NCBI RefSeq assembly: GCF_054482525.1
Contig: NZ_CM137006.1
DNA length: 64,000 nucleotides
Strand: one strand, 5' to 3'
This document shows positions 56,343 to 59,925 of this stretch, piece by piece; within the stretch, counting starts at the first letter, position 1, and every line of letters starts with the position of its first letter. Under the pieces are notes generated by a model. It ran no database searches and was not told where the DNA came from. It saw only the letters and a program-made list of their open reading frames with translations. A program made the position numbers and the translations under genes.

Positions 56343-57428
56343 ATGGCTGGAAACACAATTGGACAACTCTTTCGCGTAACCACCTTCGGCGAATCGCACG
56401 GGCTGGCGCTCGGCTGCATCGTCGATGGTGTTCCGCCAGGCATTCCGCTGACGGAAGCGGACCTGCAACATGACCTTGATCGTCGTCGCCCTGGGACATC
56501 GCGCTACACCACCCAGCGTCGTGAGCCGGATCAGGTCAAAATTCTCTCCGGTGTTTTTGAAGGCGTTACTACCGGCACCAGCATTGGCTTGTTGATCGAA
56601 AATACCGACCAGCGTTCTCAGGATTACAGCGCCATTAAAGACGTTTTCCGCCCAGGCCATGCCGATTACACCTACGAACAAAAATACGGCCTGCGCGATT
56701 ATCGCGGCGGTGGACGTTCTTCCGCCCGCGAAACCGCCATGCGCGTGGCGGCGGGGGCGATTGCCAAAAAATATCTCGCCGAGAAATTTGGCATTGAGAT
56801 TCGCGGCTGCCTGACCCAGATGGGTGACATTCCGCTGGAAATCAAAGACTGGTCGCAGGTCGAGCAAAATCCGTTTTTCTGCCCGGACCCGGACAAAATC
56901 GACGCGTTAGATGAACTGATGCGCGCGCTGAAAAAAGAGGGCGACTCCATCGGCGCGAAAGTCACCGTTGTTGCCAGTGGCGTCCCCGCCGGACTTGGCG
57001 AGCCGGTCTTTGACCGCCTGGATGCCGACATCGCCCATGCGCTGATGAGCATCAACGCGGTGAAAGGCGTAGAAATTGGTGATGGTTTTGACGTGGTGGC
57101 GCTGCGTGGCAGCCAGAACCGCGACGAAATCACCAAAGACGGTTTCCAGAGCAACCATGCGGGCGGCATTCTTGGCGGTATCAGCAGCGGGCAGCAAATC
57201 ATTGCCCATATGGCGCTGAAGCCAACCTCCAGCATTACCGTGCCAGGGCGCACAATCAACCGCTTTGGCGAAGAAGTTGAGATGATCACCAAAGGCCGTC
57301 ACGATCCTTGTGTCGGGATCCGTGCGGTGCCGATCGCAGAAGCGATGCTGGCGATCGTTTTGATGGATCACCTGTTACGGCAACGGGCGCAAAATGCCGA
57401 TGTGAAGACTGATATTCCACGCTGGTAA
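56343..57428 (+). CDS. aroC: Chorismate synthase
   Basis: 361 aa from [20 protein letters not shown]. Confidence 0.96.
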
Positions 57429-57431
57429 AAA

Positions 57432-58256
57432 ATGAACAAAACCGCGATTGCGCTGCTGGCCCTGCTTGCCAGTAGCGCCAGCCTGGCAGCGACGCCGTGG
57501 CAAAAAATAACCCAACCTGTGCCGGGTAGCGCACAATCGATAGGCAGTTTTTCTAATGGTTGTATCGTCGGCGCTGACACGCTGCCGATACAGTCCGAAC
57601 ATTATCAGGTCATGCGTACCGATCAGCGTCGCTATTTCGGACATCCGGATCTGGTGATGTTTATCCAGCGTCTGAGTAGCCAGGTGAGCAATCTGGGCTT
57701 GGGCACGGTGCTGATTGGCGATATGGGGATGCCTGCTGGTGGTCGTTTCAACGGCGGTCACGCCAGCCACCAGACCGGACTGGATGTCGATATCTTCCTG
57801 CAACTGCCAAAAACACGCTGGACCTCCGCGCAGCTCTTGCGCCCGCAAGCGTTAGATTTAGTTTCCCGCGACGGAAAACACGTTGTTCCGACGCTGTGGA
57901 AGCCGGAAATTTTCAGCTTGATCAAACTCGCCGCCCAGGACAAAGACGTCACGCGCATTTTTGTTAATCCGGCGATTAAACAACAACTTTGCCTTGATGC
58001 GGGCACCGATCGCGACTGGTTGCGCAAAGTGCGACCCTGGTTCCAGCATCGCGCGCATATGCATGTACGATTACGTTGTCCTGCCGATAGTCTGGAGTGT
58101 GAAGATCAACCTTTACCACCGCCGGGCGATGGCTGCGGGGCAGAACTGCAAAGCTGGTTTGAACCTCCAAAACCGGGAACAACAAAGCCTGAGAAGAAGA
58201 CACCGCCTCCGTTGCCGCCTTCCTGCCAGGCGCTACTGGATGAGCACGTGATCTAA
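57432..58256 (+). CDS. mepA: Penicillin-insensitive murein DD-endopeptidase
   Basis: 274 aa with signal peptide. Confidence 0.93.
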
Positions 58257-59065
58257 TGGAAACGTTTAATAGCCTGTTTATGGTTTCCCCGCTGTTGCTG
58301 GGAGTTCTCTTTTTTGTCGCCATGCTGGCGGGATTTATCGACTCGATTGCCGGTGGCGGTGGGTTACTCACTATTCCGGCATTGATGGCGGCGGGGATGT
58401 CTCCCGCTAACGCGCTGGCAACCAATAAACTGCAAGCCTGCGGCGGCTCTATTTCCGCCACTATCTACTTTATTCGCCGCAAAGTGGTTAGTTTAAGCGA
58501 TCAGAAACTCAATATCGCCATGACCTTTGTCGGCTCAATGAGCGGCGCATTGCTGGTGCAGTATGTTCAGGCTGATGTCTTACGGCAGATTTTGCCCATT
58601 CTGGTGATTTGTATCGGCCTCTATTTCTTGCTGATGCCAAAGCTGGGTGAAGAAGATCGCCAGCGTCGGATGTACGGTTTACCCTTCGCGTTAATTGCCG
58701 GTGGCTGCGTCGGTTTTTATGACGGCTTCTTTGGTCCGGCAGCGGGATCGTTTTACGCGCTGGCCTTTGTTACGCTGTGCGGATTCAACCTCGCCAAAGC
58801 CACGGCTCACGCCAAATTACTCAACGCAACGTCAAACATTGGCGGTCTGCTGCTGTTTATTCTCGGTGGCAAAGTGATTTGGGCTACGGGCTTTGTCATG
58901 CTGGTGGGGCAGTTCCTCGGCGCGCGCATGGGTTCACGACTGGTGTTGAGCAAAGGACAAAAGCTGATCCGCCCGATGATTGTTATCGTCTCGGCGGTGA
59001 TGAGTGCCAAATTACTTTATGATAGCCACGGACAGGAGATCCTCCACTGGTTGGGGATGAACTAA
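58256..59065 (+). CDS. yfcA: TauE/SafE-family membrane transporter
   Basis: 269 aa polytopic membrane protein; start overlaps mepA stop. Confidence 0.88.
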   Translation: METFNSLFMVSPLLLGVLFFVAMLAGFIDSIAGGGGLLTIPALMAAGMSPANALATNKLQACGGSISATIYFIRRKVVSLSDQKLNIAMTFVGSMSGALLVQYVQADVLRQILPILVICIGLYFLLMPKLGEEDRQRRMYGLPFALIAGGCVGFYDGFFGPAAGSFYALAFVTLCGFNLAKATAHAKLLNATSNIGGLLLFILGGKVIWATGFVMLVGQFLGARMGSRLVLSKGQKLIRPMIVIVSAVMSAKLLYDSHGQEILHWLGMN

Positions 59066-59613
59066 TGAACAGTACACACCACTATGAGCAGTTGATTGAG
59101 ATTTTTAATAGCTGCTTTGCCGATGAATTTAATACCCGTCTGATTAAAGGCGACGACGAACCGATCTATCTTCCTGCTGATGCGGAAGTACCGTATAACC
59201 GAATCGTCTTTGCTCATGGCTTTTATGCCAGCGCAATTCATGAGATTTCGCACTGGTGTATTGCCGGGAAAGCGCGCCGTGAGCTGGTTGATTTCGGCTA
59301 CTGGTATTGCCCGGACGGACGCGATGCCCAAACGCAAAGCCAGTTTGAAGATGTTGAAGTGAAGCCACAGGCGTTCGACTGGTTGTTCTGCGTGGCGGCG
59401 GGATATCCGTTTAATGTCAGTTGCGACAATCTGGAAGGGGATTTCGAACCGGATCGCGTGGTGTTTCAACGGCGGGTACATGCACAGGTGATGGATTACC
59501 TGGCAAACGGCATTCCGGAACGCCCGGCACGCTTTATTAAAGCATTACAAAATTATTATCACACGCCGGAACTTACGGCGGAACAGTTCCCGTGGCCGGA
59601 AGCGCTCAACTAA
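59065..59613 (+). CDS. epmC: Elongation factor P hydroxylase
   Basis: 182 aa; start overlaps yfcA stop. Confidence 0.9.
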   Translation: MNSTHHYEQLIEIFNSCFADEFNTRLIKGDDEPIYLPADAEVPYNRIVFAHGFYASAIHEISHWCIAGKARRELVDFGYWYCPDGRDAQTQSQFEDVEVKPQAFDWLFCVAAGYPFNVSCDNLEGDFEPDRVVFQRRVHAQVMDYLANGIPERPARFIKALQNYYHTPELTAEQFPWPEALN

Positions 59614-59646
59614 AGCCAGCGCCACGTTTTACAATGAGGAAAGAAG

Positions 59647-59925
59647 ATGATCGCGGAGTTTGAATCACGCATTCTGGCATTAATCGACGGTATGGTTGAC
59701 CATGCCAGTGATGATGAGTTGTTTGCCAGTGGGTATTTGCGTGGCCACCTGACATTAGCCATCGCAGAACTGGAAAGTGGTGATGACCACTCCGCCCAGG
59801 CGGTACATACAACCGTTAGCCAGAGTCTGGAAAAAGCGATTGGTGCCGGTGAGTTGTCGCCGCGTGACCAGGCGCTGGTGACCGATATGTGGGAAAACCT
59901 GTTTCAGCAGGCGTCACAGCAGTAA
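59647..59925 (+). CDS. yfcL: YfcL family protein
   Basis: 92 aa. Confidence 0.85.

Follow-up and report, generated by a model that had tools for sequence, protein, structure and literature searches.

The genes aroC, mepA, yfcA, epmC and yfcL are most likely expressed, together with prmB, from one polycistronic mRNA that starts at a promoter between smrB and prmB, contains no internal terminators, ends at a REP element and is controlled by the small RNA GcvB at aroC, with a mixture of functions born of accretion. The window, that is, the whole 64-kb stretch of DNA analysed, is E. coli chromosome with 100% identity to strain PCN033. The literature and RefSeq already contain the operon, its genes and the sRNA control point.

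Genes of the cluster and their conservation

The genes are listed below (Pfam gathering cut-offs for EpmC, YfcL, TauE, Peptidase_M74 and Chorismate_synt: 23.8-32.6 bits).

55376-56308, + strand: prmB, ribosomal protein L3 Gln methyltransferase (RefSeq; Pfam MTS/PrmA), GTG start
56343-57428, + strand: aroC, chorismate synthase (PF01264 Chorismate_synt, 473 bits)
57432-58256, + strand: mepA, penicillin-insensitive murein DD/LD-endopeptidase, M74 (PF03411 Peptidase_M74, 312 bits)
58256-59065, + strand: yfcA, TauE/SafE-family membrane protein, substrate unassigned (PF01925 TauE, 166.5 bits; NF007909 "hypothetical protein" equivalog)
59065-59613, + strand: epmC (yfcM), EF-P Lys34 hydroxylase (PF04315, 271 bits)
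59647-59925, + strand: yfcL, function unassigned, predicted four-helix bundle (PF08891, 115 bits)

RefSeq annotation and Pfam scores above the gathering thresholds agreed with the five gene identities of the original prediction, and the RefSeq coding sequences and a direct reading of the letters reproduced its coordinates and junctions exactly. The annotated products (RefSeq, Pfam) do differ in function, as it had pointed out. For the yfcA product, a search of solved structures gave no relative. The cluster was described as conserved core genome, and indeed it was found in 5424 of the 5426 complete E. coli genomes and, with the order kept, in about 80 Enterobacterales species. K-12 (b2330-b2325) has identical gene content, order, strand and junctions (34, 3, -1, -1 and 33). 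All three of its intergenic spacers are 100% identical to those of the present strain, and its coding sequences are 2-5% diverged, above the background of about 2%.

Start of the operon and the GcvB site before aroC

55307-55347, + strand: near-invariant block between smrB and prmB, candidate operon promoter (alignment of 19 Enterobacterales species)
56270-56279, + strand: two prmB-internal RNA 3' ends (K-12 Term-seq), 73 and 64 nt upstream of the aroC ATG
56309-56342, + strand: prmB-aroC spacer, 34 nt, CA-rich, with the aroC Shine-Dalgarno (SD) sequence GGAG at 56334-56337
56317-56329, + strand: GcvB R1 target in the prmB-aroC spacer, 13-nt exact complement GCAAACACAACAA to GcvB nt 78-90

The original prediction was of a five-gene operon beginning with aroC. 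The genes are tight and co-oriented as it said, but its left boundary was drawn too tightly: prmB lies co-oriented 34 bp upstream and is probably the first gene of the operon. In each of the 75 species that have both prmB and aroC the two are neighbours, as they are in a distant gammaproteobacterial locus (L088). Further downstream, mepA, yfcA, epmC and yfcL fall together in one co-expression sub-network.

A single polycistronic mRNA would most likely start in the divergent smrB|prmB intergenic region, which is identical to K-12 at 165 of 165 positions, the flanking coding sequences being 92.9% and 97.0% identical. In the 19-species alignment the start codon of prmB varies between GTG, ATG and TTG. 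The candidate promoter consists of a -35-like CTGATT (55308-55313), a 17-nt spacer and an extended -10-like TGgCAAACT (55328-55336). Its match to the consensus is poor (3/6 and 3/6 plus TG); a simple consensus promoter scan gave no + strand site at this position. On the grounds of sequence, we infer that a promoter within this conserved region drives the operon.

[quoted passage not shown] The pairing energy of the R1 duplex was -28.4 kcal/mol against a background of -17.6 +/- 3.9, and 25 of 3654 tiles were as good (top 0.7%). These energies come from an R1-only calculation with background, using a verified GcvB sequence; an unconstrained duplex of full-length GcvB with mRNA had given about -50 kcal/mol for every tile, which was meaningless, and R1 alone was used instead. 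The spacer is identical to K-12 at 34 of 34 positions and to Salmonella arizonae at 31 of 34. In K-12, GcvB- and R1-dependent repression of aroC has been validated, and GcvB changes aroC without changing prmB (PMC9299463, PMC11878033). Since the pairing lies in the spacer with aroC's own SD, aroC could be repressed with no change to prmB. A literature search gave no accessible report of GcvB acting on mepA, yfcA or epmC.

The selective effect of GcvB on aroC would also fit a five-gene operon transcribed from aroC's own promoter, with prmB as a separate transcription unit, and so would the abundant RNA 3' ends in the last part of prmB, shortly upstream of aroC. We consider this arrangement quite unlikely. 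Only 34 bp separate the two genes, and the GcvB site and the SD take up this space; the consensus promoter scan gave no promoter-like site before aroC; and the conserved adjacency of the two genes speaks against separate units. Published work has treated the prmB-aroC junction as intra-operonic (PMC9299463). As for the 3' ends, which were taken from the K-12 Term-seq data of Adams et al. 2021 (PMC7815308) and mapped onto the window by alignment, they have a Rho score of 0.53, an intrinsic-terminator score of 1.77 and a coverage of 90 upstream and 126 downstream (PMC7815308). Hence by score they are neither Rho-dependent nor intrinsic, and the downstream coverage is not lower. The RNA around them showed no significant structure (z = -0.85). 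These 3' ends are not terminators.

Junctions and translational coupling

57426-57434, + strand: aroC/mepA junction, TGG TAA aaa ATG, 3-bp gap; weak mepA SD
58252-58260, + strand: mepA/yfcA junction, ATC TAATG G, one base shared; yfcA SD weak and badly spaced
59061-59069, + strand: yfcA/epmC junction, AAC TAATG A, one base shared; epmC SD moderate (GGGGA)
59614-59646, + strand: epmC-yfcL spacer, 33 nt, containing TACAAT and the SD GAGGAA

Downstream of the GcvB site, mepA, yfcA and epmC follow aroC at junctions where stop and start codons lie within a few nucleotides or overlap (3 bp, -1 and -1), as in coupled cistrons, and the original prediction read these junctions as translational coupling. 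The anti-SD energies of the six genes were -9.3 (prmB, with a strong GGAGGA), -5.8 (aroC), -2.8 (mepA), -3.1 (yfcA), -5.5 (epmC) and -6.3 kcal/mol (yfcL). The weakest pairing is thus that of mepA and yfcA, whose own ribosome-binding sites are weak, whereas epmC has a usable SD in GGGGA. Because of these weak SDs, initiation at mepA and yfcA would most likely depend on ribosomes terminating upstream, in the manner of termination-reinitiation coupling to the preceding cistron. The weak SDs are compatible with coupling, not proof of it. For yfcL, independent re-initiation from the good SD within the conserved 33-nt spacer is expected.

Two observations weaken the coupling claim: there is no sequestered initiation region, and related species manage without the overlaps. 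None of the six initiation regions folded better than its shuffles (z from 0.06 to 1.40). With all six unstructured, coupling by the melting of a folded start region was rejected. That these regions are accessible would agree with a rival explanation, in which the tight junctions reflect genome compaction and free 30S subunits initiate each cistron with no functional coupling. Such overlaps are also routine: among the 34 same-strand adjacent CDS pairs in the window, 10 have gaps of at most 4 bp and 7 overlap, with fadI/fadJ, emrK/emrY, ypdE/ypdF and two fimbrial pairs as overlapping or tight examples elsewhere. The tight junctions of the cluster are real but not an unusual pattern. Moreover, the overlaps are limited to core Enterobacteriaceae, though the gene order reaches 80 Enterobacterales species. 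The aroC/mepA gap is 2-4 bp in 58/77 species, mepA and yfcA overlap by one base in 46/77, and yfcA/epmC is at -1 in 38/80 and at -4 in 10/80. Pantoea, Erwinia, Cedecea and Pectobacterium have 8-28-nt spacers in place of the overlaps, and a few species have mepA-yfcA spacers of 130-160 nt, one of them (L045) with a hairpin and a T-run. Large junction gaps at three further loci (L007, L058 and L081) were discarded as frameshifted assemblies or HSP artefacts. Relatives that hold the same gene order with 8-28-nt or longer spacers indicate that the overlap is dispensable for function. Nevertheless, compaction without coupling seems to us somewhat unlikely, for the weakest and worst-placed SDs stand at the tightest junctions, as expected if terminating ribosomes are needed, and the TAATG overlaps are retained in most Enterobacteriaceae genera despite about 40% change at third positions.

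The epmC-yfcL spacer is identical to K-12 at 33 of 33 positions and to Salmonella at 32 of 33; third-codon positions are about 62-69% identical. Judging from these alignments, both the 34-nt spacer before aroC and the 33-nt spacer before yfcL are strongly constrained, and they are best left intact in engineering.

The 3' end of the transcript

59932-59967, + strand: REP palindrome (stem 59932-59961; fold z = -3.97), with the mapped operon 3' end at 59967
60000-60160, + strand: approximate Rho-dependent termination region, antisense to the mnmC 3' end (K-12 point 2443670, equal to window 60081)

Internal terminators were one of the observations that the original prediction had named as counter-evidence, and there are none in the K-12 Term-seq data from aroC to yfcL: the full tables (PMC7815308) list no curated 3' end under aroC, mepA, yfcA, epmC/yfcM or yfcL. 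Past yfcL, the K-12 3' end 2443784 maps to window position 59967. An imperfect palindrome of about 35 nt, of the GCCGGATAAGGCG...CGCCTTATCCGGC type, lies there outside genes at 59932-59966, as is typical of REP elements; its hairpin matched the REP-derived Rfam family naRNA4 with 33 bits, short of the gathering score of 59.5. As an intrinsic terminator it is not canonical: after the hairpin comes aagcaatgcc, which lacks a T-run, and the scan gave no + strand site after yfcL. In K-12, counts across the Rho region go from 102 to 21 without BCM and from 142 to 223 with BCM (Rho score 7.6, p = 7e-18; PMC7815308). The transcript would run through yfcL, its stable 3' end being fixed by the REP hairpin about 42 nt past the gene and any read-through RNA being stopped by Rho inside antisense mnmC, as shown for K-12 and mapped onto the window. 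K-12 differs in having two REPs after yfcL (120-bp spacer), while the present strain has one (55 bp).

Evolutionary origin of the mixed functions

The distant gammaproteobacterial loci L088 and L089 have the order smr(-) prmB-aroC-epmC-NADK-like-yfcL, without mepA or yfcA, and a further locus (L087) has epmC-NADK-like-yfcL. Moellerella and Photorhabdus are without mepA, and it is only Enterobacterales that have mepA and yfcA placed between aroC and epmC. It looks as though mepA and yfcA were inserted later into an older core of prmB-aroC-epmC...yfcL, and the mixed functions would come from evolutionary accretion rather than from a common pathway.

Alternatively, the cluster could be a functional module in which YfcL, and perhaps YfcA, acts with EpmC or with translation-related neighbours. 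The genes epmC and yfcL adjoin in 80/80 Enterobacterales loci and are still linked, across one intervening gene, where EpmC identity is down to 55-57%. This linkage and the strong constraint on the spacer between the two genes point in this direction, and the translation apparatus is the target of the products of smrB, prmB, epmC and mnmC alike. However, more distant epmC genes (39-50% identity of the product) have no yfcL, yfcA, mepA or aroC nearby, the distant cluster lacks mepA and yfcA, and the four-helix bundle predicted for YfcL is a generic fold. The sole EpmC-YfcL fusion (P0011) comes from two frameshift-ridden assemblies; we rejected it as Rosetta-stone evidence, since aroC, yfcA and mnmC are frameshifted in both, which indicates an artefact or pseudogenisation. 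The literature searched reported no function for YfcL or YfcA, in keeping with the earlier remark that their roles are not obvious. A functional module is thus unlikely, and accretion is the reading we prefer. The link between yfcL and epmC, which seems to predate the arrival of mepA and yfcA, gives a modest lead toward YfcL function.

Possible regulatory consequences

As mepA, yfcA and epmC follow aroC with almost no space between the cistrons, GcvB repression might propagate to them by translational coupling, which would tie the output of the murein endopeptidase, YfcA and the EF-P hydroxylase to amino-acid status. A bolder scheme adds that the conserved polyproline motif near the end of MepA could make yfcA-epmC translation sensitive to EF-P activity and that YfcL could be an unrecognised partner in EF-P hydroxylation. 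MepA has PPP motifs at residues 229-231 (nt 58116-58124) and at 258-260 (nt 58203-58211), and a PPP 17 residues before the MepA C-terminus is kept in 76/77 species. L-PPP and T-PPP, the contexts of the MepA motifs, have been reported as weak stallers, EpmC hydroxylation as dispensable, and our literature search gave no paper naming MepA as an EF-P-dependent protein. We regard the whole scheme, spreading by coupling included, as very unlikely. In practice, the corrected picture is of use for aroC engineering or gene deletions: the unit probably begins at prmB, and inserting DNA into aroC or mepA is likely to have polar effects on yfcA and epmC.

Comparison with known systems

The pairs trpE-trpD, trpB-trpA and galT-galK are the classical coupled cistrons with overlapping stop and start codons. 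Like them, the present cluster has stop and start codons that overlap or lie a few nucleotides apart, with a weak SD at mepA and yfcA. It differs in that the classical pairs specify enzymes or subunits belonging to a single pathway, whereas its products are functionally unrelated and the coupling is putative. At the other end of the transcript, the counterpart is malE-malF, where a REP/BIME stabilises the 3' end and Rho terminates downstream. The yfcL REP shares with 3' ends of this type a GC-rich REP without a U-tract and an RNA 3' end a few nucleotides past the stem; unlike there, it stands between the convergent yfcL and mnmC, so that read-through would be antisense to mnmC. The control at aroC is like that of other GcvB targets inside operons, yggX-mltC and rbsB-rbsK, in which a CA-rich site lies in a short spacer and only the downstream cistron is repressed (PMC9299463). 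Unlike in those operons, three tightly abutted cistrons follow aroC, so that repression could spread by coupling.

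Gene content and extent of the operon

All six plus-strand products, PrmB to YfcL, exceeded their Pfam gathering scores. The identity of MepA was also backed by NCBIfam, and the only NCBIfam assignment for YfcA was a 'hypothetical protein' equivalog. The region 56000-60300 was 100% identical to the E. coli PCN033 chromosome. Matches covering 80% or more of it were present in 5424 of the 5426 complete E. coli genomes, all of them chromosomal. The original prediction placed the operon from aroC to yfcL. These genes very likely belong to it, but it probably does not start at aroC: prmB has the same orientation and stops 34 bp short of aroC, and the true extent probably takes in prmB and a validated GcvB site.

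Genes (RefSeq) and anti-Shine-Dalgarno energies
54659-55210, minus strand, smrB
55376-56308, plus strand, prmB, GTG start, -9.3 kcal/mol
56343-57428, plus strand, aroC, -5.8 kcal/mol
57432-58256, plus strand, mepA, -2.8 kcal/mol
58256-59065, plus strand, yfcA, -3.1 kcal/mol, poor spacing
59065-59613, plus strand, epmC, -5.5 kcal/mol
59647-59925, plus strand, yfcL, -6.3 kcal/mol
59981-61987, minus strand, mnmC

The R1 seed of the sRNA GcvB mediates repression of aroC, with no effect on prmB (PMC9299463, PMC11878033). Using a GcvB sequence that matched E. coli genomes at 206/206 nt, we found that GCAAACACAACAA at 56317-56329 in the prmB-aroC spacer is exactly complementary, over 13 nt, to GcvB nt 78-90, in agreement with the published predicted interval, 76-90. 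The R1 duplex at this spacer reached -28.4 kcal/mol, the background being -17.6 +/- 3.9, and 25 of 3654 tiles were equally good. An unconstrained GcvB duplex calculation was uninformative, and the R1-only energy with its background was used instead.

Junctions and possible translational coupling

Direct reading of the sequence confirmed the predicted stop/start spacing at the first three junctions.

Junctions within the cluster
aroC/mepA, TGG TAA aaa ATG, 3-bp gap
mepA/yfcA, TAATG, one base shared
yfcA/epmC, TAATG, one base shared
epmC/yfcL, spacer with GAGGAA, 33-bp gap

Such tight junctions are common. The annotation of the entire window has 34 pairs of neighbouring CDSs on the same strand; 10 of them had gaps of at most 4 bp and 7 overlapped, including fadI/fadJ, emrK/emrY, ypdE/ypdF and two fimbrial pairs. 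The two weakest Shine-Dalgarno sites (mepA and yfcA) belong to the genes at the tightest junctions, a pattern expected under re-initiation by terminating ribosomes. Coupling via unmasking of a structured start was unsupported, because folding in the six initiation regions never exceeded that of shuffled sequences (z 0.06 to 1.40). Given these energies, the predicted translational coupling appears plausible for mepA and yfcA on sequence grounds, and the case is weaker for epmC (-5.5 kcal/mol).

Conservation in Enterobacterales

An EpmC-anchored scan with one genome per species yielded 80 Enterobacterales loci. The aroC/mepA gap was 2-4 bp in 58/77 species, mepA/yfcA was -1 in 46/77, and yfcA/epmC was -1 in 38/80 and -4 in 10/80. 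Among these loci, only core Enterobacteriaceae showed junction overlaps. Spacers measured 8-28 nt in Pantoea, Erwinia, Cedecea and Pectobacterium, and Moellerella and Photorhabdus lacked mepA. Genuine mepA-yfcA spacers of 130-160 nt occurred in a few species (loci L045, L053, L064 and L069). The one in L045 (Entomohabitans; 7026-7170) carries a hairpin followed by a T-run, and the operon may be split there. Most remaining gap outliers were frameshifted assemblies or alignment artefacts.

In Salmonella arizonae (L006), the prmB-aroC spacer was identical at 31/34 positions and the epmC-yfcL spacer at 32/33, and third-codon positions at about 57-69%; by this comparison, conservation is far higher in the short spacers, which are under strong constraint, than at synonymous sites. 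The 33-nt epmC-yfcL spacer contains TACAAT.

Candidate promoter region and transcript 3' ends

Scanning 54600-60400 for the sigma-70 consensus returned no plus-strand sites, and terminator-like matches there did not exceed shuffles. Alignment of 19 Enterobacterales species revealed a near-invariant block at 55307-55347 in the smrB|prmB intergenic region, with a -35-like CTGATT, 17-nt spacing and an extended -10-like TGgCAAACT, which we infer to be a candidate operon promoter. A second conserved block, cagTTTACCCGACTCG at 55239-55255, lies on the smrB side of this divergent region; read on the minus strand as GGGTAAACT, it may be the smrB -10 element.

We placed the complete K-12 3'-end tables (Adams et al. 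2021, PMC7815308) on the window by alignment. Regarding internal terminators, which would count against the predicted operon, Term-seq gave no 3' ends inside aroC-yfcL: no curated end was listed under aroC, mepA, yfcA, epmC/yfcM or yfcL. Two ends within prmB (56270 and 56279) are not terminators; their Rho score was 0.53, their intrinsic-terminator score 1.77, and coverage went from 90 upstream to 126 downstream. The end after yfcL maps to 59967, 6 nt past a REP stem (59932-59961), and a region of strong Rho termination, antisense to mnmC, lies at about 60081 (score 7.6, p = 7e-18). The REP hairpin folded with z = -3.97 and matched the REP-derived Rfam family naRNA4 below the family threshold. 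Since no U-tract follows, it is, judged by sequence, not a canonical intrinsic terminator. A further REP-like element, also with a K-12 Term-seq 3' end, lies at 54611-54643 between a fimbrial adhesin gene and smrB.

Origin of the mixed gene content

We searched exhaustively for EpmC and inspected the contigs of its representatives.

Distant EpmC neighbourhoods
EpmC 55% identity, smr (minus strand), prmB-aroC-epmC-[NAD-kinase-like]-yfcL
EpmC 57% identity, epmC-[NAD-kinase-like]-yfcL
EpmC 39-50% identity, unrelated neighbours (BipA, 5'-3' exonuclease, PdxB-like dehydrogenase)

Judged by these neighbourhoods, the older core seems to be prmB-aroC-epmC...yfcL. mepA and yfcA were found between aroC and epmC in Enterobacterales only, and the mixed functions are best read as accretion, not a pathway. 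The NAD-kinase-like gene (PF01513/PF20143; 5418-6581 and 2100-3242 on the distant gammaproteobacterial contigs L088 and L087) overlaps the epmC end; EpmC requires reductant, and this neighbour may therefore deserve attention.

MepA is the sole cluster protein with PPP motifs (58116-58124, codons 229-231; 58203-58211, codons 258-260), and the operon also encodes the EF-P hydroxylase. The C-terminal motif, just upstream of yfcA-epmC, lies 17 residues from the C-terminus in 76/77 Enterobacterales species. EF-P feedback through these motifs is speculative, and is weakened because their contexts (L-PPP, T-PPP) are weak stallers per literature, EpmC hydroxylation is reportedly dispensable for EF-P activity, and, as 96 E. 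coli proteins carry PPP, the probability of co-location by chance is ~10%. A literature search found no MepA-EF-P link.

Comparison with K-12

Elsewhere in the window, fadJ (44651-46794) is an annotated frameshifted pseudogene, intact in K-12, and a 410-aa hypothetical protein (39564-40796) occupies the fadL-mlaA interval, which in K-12 holds the shorter yfdF (352 aa). A sucrose-utilisation (csc) cluster at ~31400-37300 (MFS transporter, kinase, cscA, LacI-type regulator) sits beside tRNA-Arg, with a truncated dsdX adjoining dsdA, an arrangement similar to the csc insertion known from the argW-dsdA site.

The yfc-type chaperone-usher fimbrial operon adjoining the cluster (48142-54589) is 67-81% identical to K-12 yfcOPQRSUV. 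Divergence decays through smrB (54659-55210; 92.9% identity) and prmB-yfcL (95.4-97.8%) relative to a background of ~98% (fadL, fadI, mlaA), and only 3/5425 genomes reach at least 99% identity over 56000-60300. aroC has been called a 'recombination hotspot' of unstated cause (Didelot et al. 2012); allelic replacement of the fimbrial operon next door may explain it.

The cluster itself is an already known operon of ordinary type. Its yfcL-mnmC spacer (59926-59980) has 55 bp and a single REP, whereas that of K-12 has 120 bp and two REP-like palindromes. The spacers 55211-55375, 56309-56342 and 59614-59646 are identical to K-12 (165/165, 34/34 and 33/33), while the adjacent CDSs differ by 2-7%.
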